Source: an uncultured Candidatus Saccharibacteria bacterium (GTDB lineage Bacteria > Patescibacteriota > Minisyncoccia > Phycocordibacterales > Phycocordibacteraceae). From it: a stretch of 64,000 nt of DNA. Positions 8,097 through 58,574 of the stretch are shown piece after piece (the stretch's first letter is position 1; every line of letters starts with the position of its first letter). Under the pieces are notes generated by a model. The model was not told where the DNA came from. It made no database searches and saw nothing but the letters and a program-made list of their open reading frames with translations. The position numbers were made by a program, and so were the translations under genes. Where the stretch lies: NCBI GenBank assembly GCA_964593365.1, contig CAZQGQ010000001.1, positions 178,384-242,383 on the forward strand. Direction: 5' to 3'.

Positions 8097-8462
8097 CTAC
8101 TGGCCGCTACCTTCTTTGCGGATAGCATCGAACTCGCGTTCAAACGTATCGATGACCTCGTCGCTGCCGTCCTCGATATCGATGAGCTGGTTTCGCGCTG
8201 AGTCGATAGCCTTGATGAGCTCGTCGAGCTTGAGGTGCACGGCATGCGCATCGCGGTTCTGGGTGTTCTGAATGAGGAACACCATGAGGAAGGTAAGGAT
8301 TGTCGTACCTGTGTTCACCATGAGCTGCCAGGTGGTAGAGAAATGGAACACGGGTCCCAAGACTGCCCAGAGCACAATGAGTGAAAAGGCGACGACAAAC
8401 GCCCACGGGGATCCGGTAACGCCGCTCGTCCAGTGAGCTACTCTTCGAAATAGGTCATGCAT
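8097..8462 (-). CDS. small membrane protein of the low-affinity iron permease (Fet4-like) / DUF1003-type family
   Basis: 'TGTTILTFLMVFLIQNTQNRDAHAVHLKLDELI' resembles the conserved core of these small bacterial permease-like proteins. Confidence 0.45.
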   Translation of the reverse strand: MHDLFRRVAHWTSGVTGSPWAFVVAFSLIVLWAVLGPVFHFSTTWQLMVNTGTTILTFLMVFLIQNTQNRDAHAVHLKLDELIKAIDSARNQLIDIEDGSDEVIDTFEREFDAIRKEGSGQ

Positions 8463-8567
8463 ATGCCCACATCATACCAGCTTCATAAGAGAGAGGGCCT
8501 GTTATCCGACCGAGCAAAAGATTGAAATAACCCCGTAAATTGGTTAGGATTCCCAAGTTCGCATCTA

Positions 8568-8642
8568 GCCGATGTAGCTCAGGGGTAGAGCAACTCCATG
8601 GTAAGGAGTAGGTCGGCGGTTCAATTCCGCCCATCGGCTCCA
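8568..8642 (+). tRNA. tRNA-Thr (GGU), CCA encoded
   Basis: Acceptor gccgatg/catcggc, anticodon stem-loop actcc-auGGUaa-ggagt, T-arm ggcggttcaattccgcc, 3' CCA. Confidence 0.8.
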
Positions 8643-8666
8643 GGACATGGTCACCCGTGTCTGTGC

Positions 8667-8742
8667 GCCATCGTAGCTCAGTTGGTAGAGCATCTCACTC
8701 GTAACGAGAAGGTCGCCGGTTCAATCCCGGCCGATGGCTCCA
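8667..8742 (+). tRNA. tRNA-Thr (CGU), CCA encoded
   Basis: Acceptor gccatcg/cgatggc, anticodon loop cuCGUaa, T-arm gccggttcaatcccggc, 3' CCA. Confidence 0.75.
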
Positions 8743-8745
8743 AAC

Positions 8746-9522
8746 TCACTTCGATCCTTTTTGTCTCCAGAGAAAGTCGAAATATCGTTGGTAATTCTTT
8801 GCGATCTCGGAGTTGATTATCTCAACGACAAAATACGACCCGATATACGAGCGAATAGCGATGCGATCATCCATAATCGCCGTGCAACTCGTGTCGCTTG
8901 TGATAAGTGGATTCTGTTTGAACTCAGTTAAGCCCTTCGTTGTCTTGGCGTACGTTCGGTCTTTAGCCATAACGTCAGGAACGATATGCTTCAAATGGAG
9001 TTTCTTTTGCTTTTGCAGATCTGCGAGTTCTTCAACTACCCCGGGACCCATAATGTCGTACCACTGCGGGGACACACCAAGAAAGCGAAGGGTGCTACCG
9101 ACTTTCGCATTTCCGTACGTTCTGCGCTCGTGTTGTCGTATCTCATCTATTCCTTCGTACACGACAATCCCTTGGGCACTGCCTTTTGAAAGGGAAGAGA
9201 GTTCTCTGATAGCGTCTTTTGCGACGGCCTCCTTCTCATGGATCGCACTTAAGAGCTGAATGGGTGGGAGCGCTCGGTATACGGCAACCCCTTTTATTTG
9301 GGATACGGATATAAGCTTCTTATCAACAAGTTCCGAAAGAGCCGTGTATACAAGATTTCGGTGAAGTCCCGTGCTTTTGATAAGTTCTCCCGCTTTAGCC
9401 TCGCCTTCGCGCGAGAGTTTCAGATACACCGTTGACTGGTTGGGAGTAAGCCCGACCTTTTGCAAGTTCTGATATAAGGCTGTCATCAGGTATATGATAG
9501 CGTTCGCATAAACCAGTGTCAA
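8746..9522 (-). CDS. TrmB-family transcriptional regulator (N-terminal wHTH)
   Basis: N-terminal 'LTPNQSTVYLKLSREGEAKAGELIKSTGLHRNLVYTALSELVDKKLI' HTH typical of the TrmB family; gene lies in a lower-GC segment. Confidence 0.55.
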   Translation of the reverse strand: MTLVYANAIIYLMTALYQNLQKVGLTPNQSTVYLKLSREGEAKAGELIKSTGLHRNLVYTALSELVDKKLISVSQIKGVAVYRALPPIQLLSAIHEKEAVAKDAIRELSSLSKGSAQGIVVYEGIDEIRQHERRTYGNAKVGSTLRFLGVSPQWYDIMGPGVVEELADLQKQKKLHLKHIVPDVMAKDRTYAKTTKGLTEFKQNPLITSDTSCTAIMDDRIAIRSYIGSYFVVEIINSEIAKNYQRYFDFLWRQKGSK

Positions 9523-9592
9523 TATGACAAAGCTGTCATAAGGGGAGGTGTCATCATAAATATGTTGACTTTACTGGATTTTCTATGATATT

Positions 9593-10015
9593 TTGCCCTC
9601 GCTACATATGACACATTCAACACCGACATCGACAGGCGACCCGTTCGGTTACTTACTTACCCTTGACCTATACGGGTGCCAAGAAGGCGCCTGTGATGAT
9701 CTTGATCTCTGTTATCGCTTCCTTGTTGATCTTGTAGAGAAGCTTGGCATGCATAAACAGTCACCGCCTTTCATATTCAGAAGCGACGAACAGAAGTATC
9801 CAGATAAAGCAGGTCTCTCCGGATGGGTTCCGCTCATAGAAAGCGGTATTCAGATACACACACTTATCCCGAAAAACTTCATATCAGTCGACGTTTACTC
9901 ATGTAGGGAGTTCTCGACAGATGAAATCGCCGAATTTGCCAAAGGATACTTCGCCTGCGAGGAGGTCGAGATGAACTTTGTCCTTCGAGGTTTGAAATAT
10001 AACCAAATAACCTAA
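9593..10015 (+). CDS. speH: S-adenosylmethionine decarboxylase proenzyme, small bacterial/archaeal class (pyruvoyl-dependent)
   Basis: Aligns by eye to B. subtilis SpeD: 'LYGC', processing-site 'ESG' and 'IQIHTLIPKNFISVDVYSCRE' (cf. [24 protein letters not shown]). Confidence 0.65.
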   Translation: MPSLHMTHSTPTSTGDPFGYLLTLDLYGCQEGACDDLDLCYRFLVDLVEKLGMHKQSPPFIFRSDEQKYPDKAGLSGWVPLIESGIQIHTLIPKNFISVDVYSCREFSTDEIAEFAKGYFACEEVEMNFVLRGLKYNQIT

Positions 10016-10020
10016 ATCTC

Positions 10021-10836
10021 ATGACTCGCCCTGAAATGCCGTCTTCTGTAGAAACAGATCTTTCTGCGATTGAGAGCAAGGACTTCGGTACCTATTGGTA
10101 CTTGGTCCAGAAGTTCTATCACGAGAAGTTCTTCAACTCAGACTATCTGGGAAGCCTTATTGCGTATCTCGATAAACTACAGCCAGCTAGGGTCCTTGAT
10201 GCTTCCTGTGGCATTGGGTATCCAGCTATTGAACTGGCTCAGCATGGTTTCAATATCACCTGCAGTGACGGCGACGAATCGCTTCTCCGGGTATTTGAAA
10301 AGCGATTGAGAGAGAGCGATGTTGCGATACCCATCCATCACGCTCGTTGGGCAGAGCTCCCAGAAAAAATAGATGGAACGTTTCCGATTGTCCTGTGTCT
10401 TGATAGTTCGATAACGTATGCAAACTCATGGGGAAGTGAAGGAGAAATAAATCTGCCTCAGACTCGGGAAGAGATACGTAAATCCCTTCAGGGTTTCTAC
10501 GACATGCTCGAACCTGGGGGCAAAGCCGTAATAGGCCTTGGTGAGTACGCCTTTACCGATGATCGGGTAGAGGGAAAGATCGTCGATCTAGGCACCCAAG
10601 CGATAGGAGGCCAGACCGTTCAGCTTGTCTGGAAGCTTGAGTTTGACTATGAACAGAAGAAGAAAACCTGGCACTCAGTCTTCACTACTAACGGTAGAGA
10701 ATATACGCGGACATTCTATAGCTACATGCTCATGGCAGACGAGCTTGAGGAGCTATTACGAGAGGTTGGATTCACCGCTATAGAAACTGAGCCAACTCCG
10801 GGCGGGTACGACAGAAACGTTATCGCAACAAAATAG
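10021..10836 (+). CDS. class I SAM-dependent methyltransferase, glycine/sarcosine N-methyltransferase-like
   Basis: 'RVLDASCGIGYPAIELAQHGFNITCSDGDESLLRVFEKR' parallels GNMT '[40 protein letters not shown]'; downstream 'LCLDSS..GGKAVIG' also parallels GNMT. Confidence 0.6.
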   Translation: MTRPEMPSSVETDLSAIESKDFGTYWYLVQKFYHEKFFNSDYLGSLIAYLDKLQPARVLDASCGIGYPAIELAQHGFNITCSDGDESLLRVFEKRLRESDVAIPIHHARWAELPEKIDGTFPIVLCLDSSITYANSWGSEGEINLPQTREEIRKSLQGFYDMLEPGGKAVIGLGEYAFTDDRVEGKIVDLGTQAIGGQTVQLVWKLEFDYEQKKKTWHSVFTTNGREYTRTFYSYMLMADELEELLREVGFTAIETEPTPGGYDRNVIATK

Positions 10837-10840
10837 ACAT

Positions 10841-10866
10841 CGGTTCAATCCCGTCGATGGCTCCCG
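10841..10866 (+). repeat. direct repeat of the 3' end (T-arm plus acceptor) of tRNA-Thr(CGU); putative attR-like duplication
   Basis: 'cggttcaatcccgtcgatggctccc' vs tRNA 3' end 'cggttcaatcccggccgatggctcca' (8716-8742); 24/26 identity. Confidence 0.6.
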
Positions 10867-10896
10867 AGAGTTAGCAACATACGTTAATATAGGGGA

Positions 10897-11268
10897 ATGG
10901 CAGGCAATAACGGACGTAATGGACCTCCCCCTCCACCAAAACCCCTAGAAGATTGGGAGCGAATCGATAGGATACGGCGCATTCTTGAAGATCTCGAGCA
11001 GGAGGATCAGCACCAAGAGCAGAGTATTGCGTCGCAGGAAGAGCAGGTTGCAATCGATGAGAGCGAGACAAAGCGCCTTTATGATTCATGGGCAGGCGTG
11101 CCGGAGGGGAAAGAAAAGTTTAAGAAGAGCATGGAAGAGCATATTGCCGCCAAGCGGAAAGAGATCGCGCGCCGTCGCGAGGTGCTTAAGGAAAGCAAAG
11201 AAGGGATAAAGAAGTTGAAGGAGGAGCTTGAGCAAATCGCTCGAAACCTTGATGTAACCAAGCACTAG
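10897..11268 (+). CDS. hypothetical coiled-coil protein with N-terminal poly-Pro tract
   Basis: 123-aa charged helical ORF ending 5 nt before prfB, in the -1 frame relative to it. Confidence 0.4.
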
Positions 11269-11279
11269 GATTGTTTTCT

Positions 11280-12158
11280 ATGGCCGACGAAACAGTTAAT
11301 CCCCGCATTCTTGAGATTGAAGTGATGATGATGGAGCCCGATTTCTGGGCGGACAAAGACGCTGCGCAGAAAATCGTGCGCGAGTACCAGGCGTTGAAAG
11401 ACGGAGGCACGGGAGACCCGCTTCAAGACGGGGACGCGACGCTTGCAGTTCTTGCGGGAGCTGGCGGAGACGACGCGGAAGATTTTGCCGCGATGCTAAA
11501 ACGCATGTACGAAGGGTACGCGAAGATAAAAGGATGGGGCGTACGCTTACTAGATGAGAACGAGAACTCGCAGGGCGGATATCGAAGCGTTCTGCTTGAG
11601 ATCAAAGGTTCTGGCGTATACGGCCGTCTGAAGCATGAGGCGGGCGTGCATCGCCTTGTCCGCATCTCTCCTTTTAATGCAAACGATAAGCGTCAGACGT
11701 CCTTTGCGATGGTCGAGGTGCATCCGACGGAAGCTCCTAAAGATAAGATCGAGCTTAAGGCCGATGACCTCGACATCCAGTTCGCGCGCTCAGGAGGGGC
11801 AGGCGGACAGAACGTAAACAAACGAGAGACCGCAGTACGCATCGTGCACACCCCGACGGGGATAAGCGCTCACGTCTCAAGCGAGCGGAGCCAACTGGCT
11901 AACCGAGAGAAGGCCATGGAGCTCGTGAAGGCAAAGCTCTACAAGCTTCAGGAGGAAGAGCGTGAAGCGGAGACCGCAGGACGCACGCTTTCTAAGACGA
12001 CGGCGAACGAATGGGGCAGCCAGCGCCGTTCCTACGTCCTCCACCCCTATAAGATGGTGAAAGACCACGCCTCAGGGCACGAATCGGGGAATCCGGATGC
12101 GGTATTAGCTGGTGAGCTTGATGATTTTATAGACGCAGCTTCCGCGGGTGGGGTATAA
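11280..12158 (+). CDS. prfB: peptide chain release factor 2 (short form, no canonical +1 frameshift site)
   Basis: GGQ motif '[11 protein letters not shown]' and the RF2-specific 'SPF' tripeptide. ATG 11280 has AGGA 9 nt upstream (an alternative TTG start is at 11271). An in-frame TGA at 11250 blocks upstream extension. Confidence 0.8.
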
Positions 12159-12168
12159 TGCACCGGAC

Positions 12169-12849
12169 ATGATTTATTTCGACAATGTGACGAAGACGTA
12201 CCGCGACGGTACTCCCGCTCTTGATGAGATAACGCTCTCCATCTCTCCAAAAGAATTCGTCTCCATTGTCGGACACTCGGGCGCAGGCAAGACAACGCTC
12301 CTCAAGATGCTTCTCGTTGAGGATCATCCAACTACAGGCTCTGTCTTTTTTGAATCGACCGACATACATACGCTTCCGAAGAACTCCCTCCACCACTATC
12401 GCCGCAAGATCGGCACCGTCTTCCAGGATTTCCGCTTGATCCCGCACCGAACTGCCTACGAGAACATCGCGTTTGCGATGGAAGCCGCAGGACGCGCAGA
12501 CGATGAGATCGCGTCAGACGTTCCCTACATTCTTGATCTCGTTGACCTTGGAGATAAGGCGAATCATTTCCCTAACCAGCTCTCCGGAGGGGAGCAGCAG
12601 CGCGTTGCGATCGGCCGCGCGATCATCAACCAGCCGGACGTTATCGTCGCGGATGAGCCGACCGGAAACTTGGATCCGGTTAACACTTATGACGTCATTG
12701 AAATCTTGAAGAAGATTAACGAGCTCGGCACGACCGTCATCATCACGACGCACAATAAGGGCGTCGTTGATTCTGTCGGCAAGCGCGTCATCACGATGGA
12801 CAAGGGACGCGTGGTGCGAGACGACGCTAACGGCCGCTATAGCCTATAA
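12169..12849 (+). CDS. ftsE: cell division ATP-binding protein FtsE
   Basis: Walker A 'GHSGAGKTT', ABC signature 'LSGGEQQR', Walker B 'ADEPTGNLD'; immediately upstream of ftsX. Confidence 0.85.
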
Positions 12850-12851
12850 CT

Positions 12852-13778
12852 ATGAACTGGATGACCCTCAAGCGAATTGCAATTAACGGAGCGAGAAGCT
12901 TCGCGAGAAGCGGTGCGGTTTCGTTTGCGACCGTGCTCATCATGACCGTTACCTTGGGCATCATCGGCCTCTTGGTATTCTTGTCTGCTCTTTTGACCTA
13001 CACGCTGAACGAAATCAAGGATAAAGTCGACGTCAACATCTACTTTGCTACAAGCGCTGCAGAAAGCGACATCGTCGCGCTCCAGAAGGATTTGACTGAG
13101 CTTCCTGAAGTCGAGCGCGTTACCTATACCTCTCGCGAACAAGCACTCGAGGAGTTCCGCGAGCGCCATGCTGGCGATCAGCTCACCCTCCAGGCCCTCG
13201 AAGAGCTTGGTGATAACCCCCTTGGGGCCTCCCTTGCTGTTAAGGCCAAGGATCCTTCCCAGTACGAGCGCATCGTTACGTTCCTTGAGGATGAGCCTGC
13301 GCTCTCAGGAGATGGCACATCGATCATCGACCGCGTGAACTATTTCCAGAATAAGCTCGTGATTGACCGCCTCACAGGCGCTATCCGGGCAACGGAAGCC
13401 GCAGGCGCCCTCATCGTCATACTCTTTGCGCTTGCCTCAGCGGTCATCACCTTTGCTACCGTTCGTCTTGCCATCTACACGACTCGAGACGAGATCGGGG
13501 TCATGCGCCTCATGGGAGCCTCGAACTTCTTCATTCGCGGTCCGTTCATCGTGACGGGCATCATGGCAGGCGTTATCGCAGCCGTCATCGTCCTGGTCGC
13601 CCTCTATCCGATCTCCTGGTACGCAGGATCTGCGACAGCATCATGGCTTGGCGGATTCAACGTCTTCACGTACTACACTGCAAACTTCCCGCTCTTCTTC
13701 CTGACGCTTGTAGGAGCAGGTGTGTTGCTTGGAGGACTCGCAAGCTTCTTCGCCGTCCGTCGGTATCTCAAGATCTAA
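12852..13778 (+). CDS. ftsX: cell division permease FtsX
   Basis: 4-TM topology with a large periplasmic loop; directly follows ftsE. Confidence 0.8.
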   Translation: MNWMTLKRIAINGARSFARSGAVSFATVLIMTVTLGIIGLLVFLSALLTYTLNEIKDKVDVNIYFATSAAESDIVALQKDLTELPEVERVTYTSREQALEEFRERHAGDQLTLQALEELGDNPLGASLAVKAKDPSQYERIVTFLEDEPALSGDGTSIIDRVNYFQNKLVIDRLTGAIRATEAAGALIVILFALASAVITFATVRLAIYTTRDEIGVMRLMGASNFFIRGPFIVTGIMAGVIAAVIVLVALYPISWYAGSATASWLGGFNVFTYYTANFPLFFLTLVGAGVLLGGLASFFAVRRYLKI

Positions 13779-56639: not shown

Positions 56640-58574
56640 TTATACTCCGATCAAGACCGGGATAACCATCGGTGCCTTGTTGGTTCGAGAGAACAGATAG
56701 CCTGCCATGGTGTCGGTAAGCTGGTTCTTCACGAAATCAAGGTCAACCGGGTTCATTCCCTCAGTCGAGTCCTCGACTGTCTTCTTGATGAGAAGGCGGG
56801 CTTGGTTCAGAAGATCCTGAGACTCTCGCAGATAGATGAATCCGCGGGAGATGATATCAGGGGACTTCCGCAGTTTGCCGGTCTTTAGGTGCACGGTCGC
56901 GATGATGACGAACATGCCGTCCTTGGCGAGCATCTGGCGGTCGCGGATCACGACCTCCTGCATGTCGCCGATGGCGAATCCGTCGACAATCAACGGAGCG
57001 TTTGGCACCTTATCCTTGTGGATCATGAGGCGCTCGCCGTCCACGATGTCGATCACCATGCCGTTATCGGCAAGGACGATGTTCTCGCGAGGGAAGCCTG
57101 CCTGCTCGACTGCCTTTGCGTGTGAGCTTGTCATAGAGTAGTAGCCGTACGCTGGCATGAAGAACTTCGCGTTCACCTGCTTGTTGATCCAGACCAACTC
57201 TCCGGTTTGTCCGTGTCCTGTGGAGTGCACGTCAGAGGAGCGGTAATGGATCAGGGTGACCTTGTTGCGGAAGAGGTTATCCTTCAAGCGCTGCACGGCG
57301 ATCTCGTTTCCAGGAATAACCGATGACGAGAGCACGATAGTATCTCGCTCGTTAAGCGTGATGCTCTTGTGCTGCTTGGTTGCGATGCGCATAAGCGCTG
57401 CGAATTCCTCACCCTGCGCGCCTGTTGCCAAGACGACGATCTTGTCTGGCGGATAATCGCCTATCTCGGTCGCGGGGACAACGGTTCCCTTGGCGATCTT
57501 GAGGAGGCCGGTCTTCTCTGCGATCTCAAGGTTCGTCTTGATCGAACGGCCTTCCATAACCACCTTCTTCCCGAGTCGCTCGGCGATCTGGATGATATGG
57601 ATCATGCGCTCGAACTGGGACGCGAAGGTGCCGATAATGAGGCGTCCTTTCACCGTCTTCACGATCTCCTCCAAGGTCTCATGGACCTTTCGTTCGGGGA
57701 TCGAGAAGCCGTCCTTCTCGGCGTTTGTTGAGTCTGCAATAAAGAACAGGTTGTTGTCCTTTCCGATCTCGCCCCACTTCTTGGCTTCTGCTTCAGTGGC
57801 GACGCCATCGACATGGTCGAGCTTCAAGTCTCCTGTCGCAACGACGTTGCCGTAGGGCGTCTCGATCGAGATACCCATCGAGTCAGGGATAGAGTGCGTG
57901 ACTGGGAAGAACTTCACTCGTGTTCCTCCAATGGTGTGCGTTGACCCAGGCTCAACCACCACGAGGTTTGGAGCGGGCATCTCAGGATATTCTTCCTGAC
58001 GCTTCTGGATCATCACGGCAGAAAGGTTCTGCGTGTAGATAGGGGGGTTCCCGAATCGGTTCATGAGGAACGGGATGCCGCCGATGTGGTCGAGGTGGCC
58101 GTGGGTAATGAAGACCGCGCGTACGCGTTCTTGGTTCTTCTCAAGGTAACTGGTGTTAGGGAGCATGTAGTCGACGCCTGGAGCCGTGTCTTCGGAGACG
58201 AACTGGAAGCCCACGTCGCAGACGAAGATATCGTTGCCGCTTTCAACGGCAAACATGTTGCGTCCCACTTCCTCGACGCCGCCAAGAGGCACGATGCGAA
58301 CGACGTTTGGTGCGACTGGGTCAGGGAAGTAATCAGCTACTTTTCGGACTGTTGGGGCCGAGGGGGATCGGCGCATGCCGCCGCGGCGCATGTCGCGCTG
58401 CTTTCCTCCGGATCGTCCGCCTGCTGCGCGAGGTCCTCCGGTTCGAGGTCCGCGAGACGGGCCCTGGGGCCCTGCTCCGCGATTGCCGCGGAAGGGAGGG
58501 CGTCCACCTGCCTGATCGCCGCCTTGGCGGGAATCTGGAGCGGGTGCTGGGGCCGGTGCTGGTGCAAAGTTCAT
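56640..58574 (-). CDS. rnj: ribonuclease J (metallo-beta-lactamase/beta-CASP) with ~90-aa N-terminal RG-rich extension
   Basis: 'FITHGHLDHIGG' HxHxDH motif, beta-CASP and C-terminal domains; N-terminus 'PAPAPAPAP..RGNRGAGPQG'. Confidence 0.85.
   Translation of the reverse strand: MNFAPAPAPAPAPDSRQGGDQAGGRPPFRGNRGAGPQGPSRGPRTGGPRAAGGRSGGKQRDMRRGGMRRSPSAPTVRKVADYFPDPVAPNVVRIVPLGGVEEVGRNMFAVESGNDIFVCDVGFQFVSEDTAPGVDYMLPNTSYLEKNQERVRAVFITHGHLDHIGGIPFLMNRFGNPPIYTQNLSAVMIQKRQEEYPEMPAPNLVVVEPGSTHTIGGTRVKFFPVTHSIPDSMGISIETPYGNVVATGDLKLDHVDGVATEAEAKKWGEIGKDNNLFFIADSTNAEKDGFSIPERKVHETLEEIVKTVKGRLIIGTFASQFERMIHIIQIAERLGKKVVMEGRSIKTNLEIAEKTGLLKIAKGTVVPATEIGDYPPDKIVVLATGAQGEEFAALMRIATKQHKSITLNERDTIVLSSSVIPGNEIAVQRLKDNLFRNKVTLIHYRSSDVHSTGHGQTGELVWINKQVNAKFFMPAYGYYSMTSSHAKAVEQAGFPRENIVLADNGMVIDIVDGERLMIHKDKVPNAPLIVDGFAIGDMQEVVIRDRQMLAKDGMFVIIATVHLKTGKLRKSPDIISRGFIYLRESQDLLNQARLLIKKTVEDSTEGMNPVDLDFVKNQLTDTMAGYLFSRTNKAPMVIPVLIGV

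Follow-up and report, generated by a model that had tools for sequence, protein, structure and literature searches.

A short prfB without the autoregulatory frameshift site in a patescibacterial contig and its relatives

In the classical form of prfB, the gene for release factor 2 (RF2), an autoregulatory +1 frameshift at a CUU-UGA-C site leads from a short first frame (ORF0) into the rest of the gene, and the shift falls at Leu25 in Escherichia coli prfB and at Leu24 in Bacillus subtilis prfB. Here we consider prfB in a stretch of 64,000 nucleotides from an uncultured Candidatus Saccharibacteria bacterium (contig CAZQGQ010000001.1 of assembly GCA_964593365.1, positions 178,384 to 242,383; this whole stretch is "the window" below). 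The gene encodes an RF2 of 292 amino acids and lies just downstream of a 123-amino-acid open reading frame (ORF), termed ORF1, which is on the same strand and in a different frame. A preliminary description of this DNA had left three explanations side by side: a truly short gene, an unusual recoding event, or an insertion or deletion. We conclude that the first is very probably correct, that is, that the window prfB is an intact, naturally short gene, and that this form of RF2 is standard for Paceibacteria (Parcubacteria, Patescibacteria/Candidate Phyla Radiation, CPR).

Frameshift-less prfB genes are known from Actinomycetota, Thermotogota, and Mycoplasmatota, and the loss of the site has been tied to high GC content together with high TGA usage (Prince et al., 2025, PMC12421855). 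That survey used RefSeq genes annotated as prfB, and its text nowhere mentions Patescibacteria or CPR (PMC12421855). As to the protein, Baranov et al. (2006, PMC1586002), summarizing Mora et al. (2003), state that hydrolysis and the recognition of stop codons can do without domain 1 and that the interplay with RF3 needs it. RF3 itself is missing from small genomes (Baranov et al., 2006, PMC1586002).

Reading frame and domains of the window RF2

By direct reading, the prfB frame ends with TAA at 12156-12158 and has two possible starts, TTG 11271 and ATG 11280, downstream of an in-frame TGA. ATG 11280 is the likelier start because eight codons then precede an R-I-x-E-I-E motif, which is also the most common spacing in the clade; TTG 11271 is possible but less likely. 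CTTTGA does not occur at or near the start, either by direct reading or in a motif scan, and the other parts of a +1-frameshift prfB are missing as well. There is no ORF0 that ends in CUU UGA (C), ORF1 lies out of frame for such a shift and has TAG as its stop codon, and there is no slip site for a Shine-Dalgarno (SD)-like element to precede (the sole AGGA overlaps the stop codon of ORF1). The window prfB thus lacks both the ~24-codon ORF0 segment and the CUU-UGA-C/SD cassette, and it is presumably not autoregulated by +1 frameshifting.

The protein is a housekeeping RF2, not an accessory factor. Pfam finds both PF03462 (PCRF, E = 7.8e-41) and PF00472 (RF-1, with the GGQ motif, E = 1.5e-34), and the two functional motifs are present as ISPFNAN (SPF; RISPFNAN in context) and GGAGGQ (GGQ). 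In an alignment of 38 homologues, S130, P131, and G175-G176-Q177 are invariant and F132 is nearly so. Among the NCBIfam models, the RF2 profile scores best (TIGR00020 prfB, 326.2 bits), ahead of prfA (214-215 bits), prfH (95.8 bits), and ArfB (41.4 bits). These results, together with the frame analysis, uphold the preliminary description as to the two possible starts, the TGA at 11250, the SPF and GGQ motifs, and the lack of a CUU-UGA-C site.

Domain 1 is strongly reduced. In HMMER alignments, residues 5-41 of the window RF2 correspond to B. subtilis RF2 residues 28-64, and residues 45-286 correspond to 119-359, so the first methionine would fall near B. subtilis residue 24. (We take this methionine to sit at the frameshift-site position itself, where classical genes have the Leu/Asp codons of the site.) The alignment to solved RF2 structures thus leaves out the equivalents of B. 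subtilis residues ~1-23 and ~65-118, the latter by an internal deletion of ~54 residues that joins B. subtilis positions 64 and 119 at window residues 41/45. The TIGR00020 alignment similarly covers only query residues 50-287 (profile positions 115-351). The preliminary description had aligned the protein by eye to E. coli RF2 from about residue 22, in the stretch after the frameshift site; it was right about where the protein begins but missed the internal deletion.

Instead of the full helical domain 1 of ~115 residues, then, only the equivalent of B. subtilis residues 24-64 remains. An AlphaFold2 model built from the 38 homologues (mean pLDDT of 72.9, and 74-87 over residues 11-40) has just two helices here, at residues 8-18 and 26-40, and then passes directly into the beta-rich domain 2. 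The best structural matches of the model are crystal structures of free RF2 (1gqe and 2ihr, TMq 0.72). Domain 1 has been cut from ~115 to ~45 residues, as a two-helix stub, while the SPF decoding and GGQ catalytic domains are canonical. The window RF2 should still read UGA and UAA and hydrolyze peptidyl-tRNA, and it probably lacks the contacts to RF3 and the L11 stalk that domain 1 provides in model bacteria. No second release-factor gene (prfA) was found in the window or in the loci that we fetched.

The short form in relatives and the upstream ORF

The same short RF2 is widespread. More than 590 relatives came up when GTDB species representatives were scanned, and we examined the best 80. 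(The locus sets used below are these 80 species representatives, 84 non-redundant related loci, and, for counts of CTTTGA, 85 loci.) All 80 are species-level Paceibacterota/Parcubacteria genomes, and their RF2s are of the same short form and 49-82% identical to the window protein. The 120 top-ranking homologues (71-99% identity) belong to Paceibacterota, Parcubacteria, or Patescibacteria, and almost all have lengths of 277-300 amino acids. Wherever a locus extends far enough upstream, there is an ATG 4-16 codons (mode 8) ahead of the residue that aligns with Arg9 of the query, which gives predicted proteins of 283-314 amino acids. Most loci have an in-frame stop codon ~8-40 codons ahead of the conserved motif; in a few, the frame continues without a stop for as many as 189 codons. 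The start in the window agrees with those in 84 relatives. In 15 species, a tRNA-Thr gene ends only 0-10 nucleotides before the prfB start codon (and the two genes are directly adjacent in L006, L032, and L043), so that a further N-terminal coding segment is physically impossible there. Finally, between -300 and +60 of the prfB starts of 85 loci, CTTTGA was observed 6 times, against ~7.5 expected, and never in position. We therefore rejected the idea of hidden canonical frameshift sites in the relatives.

A few database entries are longer (P0079 with 371, P0074 with 330, and P0066 with 310 amino acids), and their extensions read ...ATVAQLVEHxTRNEKVxSSILxGGS. These are miscalled starts, because the extensions are translations of the upstream tRNA-Thr gene (e.g., L004, 4001-4246). 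Recent NCBI records label the short RF2 of Paceibacteria as "PCRF domain-containing protein." A separately assembled JGI contig, L001, has DNA that is identical to the window across the junction of ORF1 and prfB. (Elsewhere in the gene, at ~730-745 of L001 or residues 55-60 of its protein P0001, a 3-nucleotide deletion gives AVPGAGGDD and drops invariant or near-invariant residues. The contig is otherwise near-identical, and the deletion may be a strain variant or an assembly error.)

Some points weigh against our conclusion. The TIGR00020 score is below the curated whole-protein cut-off of 370 bits. We attribute the shortfall to the missing segments of domain 1, but it means that the assignment as a functional RF2 rests on the motifs, the best-profile match, and synteny. 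Also, the independence of L001 from the source of the window may be incomplete. Lastly, the start codon, the 5' end of the mRNA, and the existence of an ORF1 protein are all things that we infer.

ORF1 is probably a real but lineage-specific gene that is unrelated to RF2. It is probably translated because its codons are used much as in the rest of the genome and its own frame is strongly preferred (a score of 0.36, with a genome mean of 0.38, versus -0.62 and -0.93 in the other frames). The preliminary description gave its length and its end at 11266-11268 correctly; its distance to the likely prfB start, ATG 11280, is 11 nucleotides. No homologue of ORF1 was found among 5.8e9 clustered proteins by a word-indexed search, or in PHROGs or phage genomes, and a full HMMER search of 1.84e9 representative proteins gave one marginal match, to a coiled coil (E = 2.6e-4). 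Within the 84 related loci, tblastn found ORF1 only in the identical contig, L001. We infer that it is a separate small gene, either rapidly evolving or newly acquired, in the spacer between tRNA-Thr(CGU) and prfB.

The alternative that survives best, although we consider it unlikely, is that ORF1 is not a gene at all but an open frame in a non-coding spacer or in insertion debris, and that prfB is the first cistron. This would fit with the absence of homologues, with the low-complexity composition of ORF1, and with the signals upstream of it (no convincing SD or strong promoter, and only a weak TAATAT 6 nucleotides away). However, the genome-typical codon usage is not expected of such a frame, an open frame of 372 nucleotides is unlikely to arise by chance at 52.6% GC, and gene callers also call ORF1 on the second contig, L001.

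Second, ORF1 might replace domain 1 in trans, or act as a chaperone or regulator of RF2, and be translationally coupled to prfB. In favor of this, the gap is short, with an AGGA overlapping the stop codon, and several close relatives have an ORF of 110-132 amino acids that ends ~10-25 nucleotides before prfB. But shuffle-calibrated Smith-Waterman comparisons place these ORFs in unrelated families. The ORFs of L085 and L002 (82% and 78% RF2 identity) form one family of 125-132 amino acids (mutual z = 14.7, and z < 1 with ORF1), and those of L005 and L012 form another, of small coiled-coil proteins (mutual z = 5.0). ORF1 has a marginal similarity to the L012 ORF (z = 3.1, reached by 3 of 300 shuffles), but a profile search with the L005 and L012 proteins found only those two and no further members. 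Thus, we rejected the idea of one conserved small-protein family upstream of prfB, as there are at least two. Other close relatives have quite different neighbors: L087 (79% RF2 identity) has a tRNA-Thr 70 nucleotides away, and L088 (80%) has a minus-strand ORF. More broadly, the spot is taken in many species by a tRNA, by a promoter, or by a gene on the minus strand, and since almost every genome that encodes this short RF2 lacks ORF1, ORF1 is unlikely to be a partner that RF2 requires. Nor does ORF1 resemble domain 1 of a release factor. A gene upstream of prfH was once considered as a substitute for domain 1 in the same way, and Baranov et al. saw no apparent reason to believe it (PMC1586002). 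Because the relatives carry other things upstream and the L005/L012 family has no further members, a substitute in trans is unsupported, and we consider it very improbable.

The preliminary description had suggested comparing prfB with that of related genomes, and had expected that a short gene with a separate conserved upstream gene would argue against a fusion. The relatives do have the same short RF2 and no fusion, but what lies upstream is not conserved.

Third, in a still less credible scenario, a programmed -1/+2 frameshift or a bypass within 11253-11265 would fuse ORF1 to RF2, so that the tail of ORF1 supplies the N-terminal helix and autoregulation is non-canonical. Its attractions are that ORF1 ends so close to the prfB start, that its tail is helical and charged like helix alpha-1 of RF2, and that classical prfB is recoded at the homologous position. 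The geometry is wrong, though: the codons of ORF1 lie at 1 mod 3 and those of RF2 at 0 mod 3, so joining them requires a shift of -1 (or +2) rather than the canonical +1, and the region in question (GAT GTA ACC AAG CAC) contains neither an X XXY YYZ heptamer nor CUU-UGA. The stop codon of ORF1 is TAG, which is read by RF1, so it could not sense RF2. And the 80 species, and likewise the closest relatives, have the same short RF2 without ORF1. The proposed resemblance of the ORF1 tail to the N-terminal helix of RF2 did not hold up either. ORF1 has no match to PCRF or prfB in Pfam or NCBIfam at E ≤ 1, and in two conceptual fusions of ORF1 and RF2 the TIGR00020 score fell from 326.2 to 319.3 or 317.9 bits (a shuffled tail gave 326.8). 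With no gain in hmmscan, alone or in either fusion, over the shuffled control, we rejected the tail as helix alpha-1, and the profile check for a fused N-terminal domain came out negative.

Finally, a sequencing or assembly error of 1-2 nucleotides near 11250-11270 that split a longer prfB into two ORFs is just as hard to believe: adjacent ORFs on the same strand in different frames are the usual signature of such an error, but the separately assembled L001 is identical across the junction, the N-terminus of RF2 coincides with those of 84 relatives, ORF1 is not RF2-like, and the repaired fusion would add ~120 unrelated residues that are found in no homologue. The gene is truly short, as the 80 loci with proteins of ~290 amino acids indicate, so both recoding and an indel fail, and no sequence feature ties ORF1 to prfB via frameshifting.

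We also considered whether an upstream ORF that ends in UGA might sense RF2. In 24 loci, the upstream ORFs end in TAG (10), TAA (10), or TGA (4), so TGA is not enriched and we rejected this idea; no RF2-sensing device was found upstream of prfB. As a separate observation, the homologous ORFs of L005 (2093-2467) and L012 (1710-2042) both end in ...TVQ-TGA, in the frame of prfB and 12 nucleotides before its ATG, and L012 has a second in-frame TGA.

Expression signals and gene order

A -10 hexamer, TATACT or TATAAT, lies just before prfB in 35 of the 84 non-redundant loci, as compared to 2.2% of random control positions. It ends 4-9 nucleotides (mode 6) ahead of the ATG, and in 20 loci it comes with TGn. 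A -10 box next to the ATG is a signature of leaderless mRNAs, and it predicts leaderless prfB mRNAs across Paceibacteria. Where tRNA-Thr abuts prfB, processing of the tRNA would create the 5' end of the mRNA, akin to the "tRNA punctuation" of mitochondria. Together, these two groups comprise ~60% of the species, in which the prfB mRNA would seem to have hardly any leader or none. SD-like motifs are rare before prfB, at 7 of the 84 loci, and a hierarchical sort of the loci placed one in the SD-like class. (L006, L018, and L032 also carry an SD-like 4-mer and were classed as tRNA-abutting.)

The window is atypical in this respect. It has no -10 box before prfB, and instead has AGGA within TAGGAT, overlapping the stop codon of ORF1, for which it was flagged as SD-like. 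TAGGAT is either an SD-like site or a weak -10-like hexamer (TAnnnT, 8 nucleotides from the ATG). Judging from this arrangement, the window prfB is probably translated as a downstream cistron of a polycistronic mRNA, with ribosomes that would either re-initiate (coupling) or initiate at the AGGA. Across the window, ~9 of 70 ORFs have the same pattern of a -10 box before the start, and SD-like motifs are rare before its genes.

The GC content of the window is 52.6%, and 70 greedily called ORFs end in TAG (36), TAA (27), or TGA (7), which is a rough count from a single 64-kb window. With this GC content and only 7 of 70 ORFs ending in TGA, the lineage runs against the trend that links loss of the frameshift to GC and TGA usage. 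Combining these observations, we tentatively propose a broader reading, which we rate as possible rather than probable. RF2 of Paceibacteria would naturally have only a minimal domain 1 and would be encoded by a gene that starts at the ancestral frameshift site. Frameshifting would have been lost by discarding ORF0, not by fusing the frames. The mRNA would typically be leaderless (with a -10 box 6-8 nucleotides before the ATG, or through processing of tRNA-Thr), and the stub would reflect termination without contacts to RF3 or the L11 stalk in the reduced translation apparatus of CPR. The clade would then be a low-TGA counter-example to the idea that loss follows from high demand for RF2.

The gene order in the clade is an iron permease (on the minus strand), tRNA-Thr(GGU), tRNA-Thr(CGU), a variable spacer, prfB, ftsE, ftsX, and CTP synthase. 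The window has 2.5 kb between tRNA-Thr(CGU) and prfB, and this spacer contains an island (Table 1) whose GC content is 0.46-0.48, versus 0.53-0.56 in the flanking genes. The island looks like an old insertion at tRNA-Thr(CGU): a degenerate copy of the 3' part of the tRNA marks the old tRNA end and the boundary of the island. No integrase is present. ORF1 sits between this remnant and prfB. The only known RNA elements that we found in 8400-12300 are the two tRNAs.

Downstream, the probable start of ftsE is ATG 12169 and not GTG 12148. The stop codon of prfB is overlapped by a perfect TATAAT (12154-12159), 9 nucleotides before that ATG and with a -35-like TAGACG 18 nucleotides upstream, and ftsE may have its own promoter. 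Elsewhere in the window, ARAGORN reports a tRNA-Phe(GAA) of 104 nucleotides at 58179-58282 on the minus strand, with the anticodon at position 39. This is far longer than a normal tRNA, and it may contain an intron or an insertion.

Table 1. Features of the prfB region in the window, and relatives with each kind of upstream signal
Feature	Position or loci	Strand	Remarks
tRNA-Thr(CGU)	8667-8742	+	Conserved upstream neighbor of prfB in the clade
Inserted low-GC island, 2.1 kb	8743 to about 10837-10866		Absent here in relatives
TrmB-family regulator	8746-9522	-	Pfam
S-adenosylmethionine decarboxylase	9593-10015		Pfam
Methyltransferase	10021-10836		Pfam
Degenerate tRNA-Thr(CGU) 3' copy	10822-10864	+	Last 25 columns: 23 matching, one gap
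ORF1, 123-amino-acid orphan	10897-11268	+	Stop TAG 11266-11268; Pro-rich N-terminus, charged helical remainder
In-frame TGA closing the RF2 frame upstream	11250-11252	+	No frame-0 CUU before the TGA in a +1 geometry
TAGGAT	11266-11271	+	ORF1 stop overlapping AGGA, 9 nucleotides before the prfB ATG
prfB, 292-amino-acid RF2	11280-12158	+	Reduced domain 1 (remnant ~ residues 1-45), SPF and GGQ, no frameshift site
ftsE	12169-12849	+	ORF opens at GTG 12148; ATG 12169 gives the canonical N-terminus
ftsX	12852-13778		Directly after ftsE; conserved prfB-ftsE-ftsX synteny
tRNA-Thr abutting prfB (0-10 nucleotides)	L006, L018, L030, L032, L033, L037, L043, L053, L058, L062, L067, L071, L073, L079, L080		
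-10 box before prfB	L002, L004, L008-L011, L015, L017, L019, L020, L022, and others		35 of 84 loci

Significance and comparison with known release factors

For the window itself, the result is mainly a clean-up: recoding, a pseudogene, and an assembly error are all unneeded, and the appropriate annotation for ORF1 is a hypothetical gene of its own. It also accounts for the "PCRF domain-containing protein" labels and for the occasional extension of these genes through the upstream tRNA gene by annotation pipelines. The wider interest is in a whole class of CPR bacteria with a domain 1 of ~45 residues and no frameshift autoregulation despite low TGA usage. This offers a natural setting in which to ask how domain 1, and its interplay with RF3 and L11, contribute to termination, and it reveals a gap in surveys of prfB frameshifting that relied on RefSeq prfB annotation. 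Full-text literature searches found no description of RF2 with a reduced domain 1 in CPR, and a clade-wide form that is also frameshift-less appears undescribed.

The window RF2 has the same PCRF and RF-1 domains, SPF "anticodon," and GGQ as canonical RF2 (E. coli, B. subtilis; TIGR00020), and it is 34-44% identical to solved RF2s. It differs in that its gene has no ORF0, no CUU-UGA-C, and no internal SD, and in that it has 292 rather than ~365 amino acids. With the prfB genes of Actinomycetota, Thermotogota, and Mycoplasmatota it shares a single uninterrupted ORF without autoregulatory recoding. However, those genes reportedly retain the whole N-terminal domain within a single ORF; in the window RF2, the N-terminal segment is simply absent.

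RF-H (prfH) and proteins of the ArfB/ICT1 type are relatives of class-I release factors that also function without a normal domain 1. But the window protein scores only 95.8 bits against the prfH model (TIGR03072), below its cut-off of 166.65, and 41 bits against ArfB, and in contrast to both it keeps SPF, a two-helix stub of domain 1, and the prfB-ftsE-ftsX synteny. The rtcB-like partner that accompanies prfH is not present; the neighbors in the window are tRNA-Thr, ORF1, ftsE, and ftsX.

Finally, RF1 and RF2 have been truncated at the N-terminus in the laboratory, and according to the summary of that work in PMC1586002 (Mora et al., 2003), factors without domain 1 still recognize stop codons and release the peptide. 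The truncation described here differs from those in that it is natural, partial, and conserved in at least 80 species.

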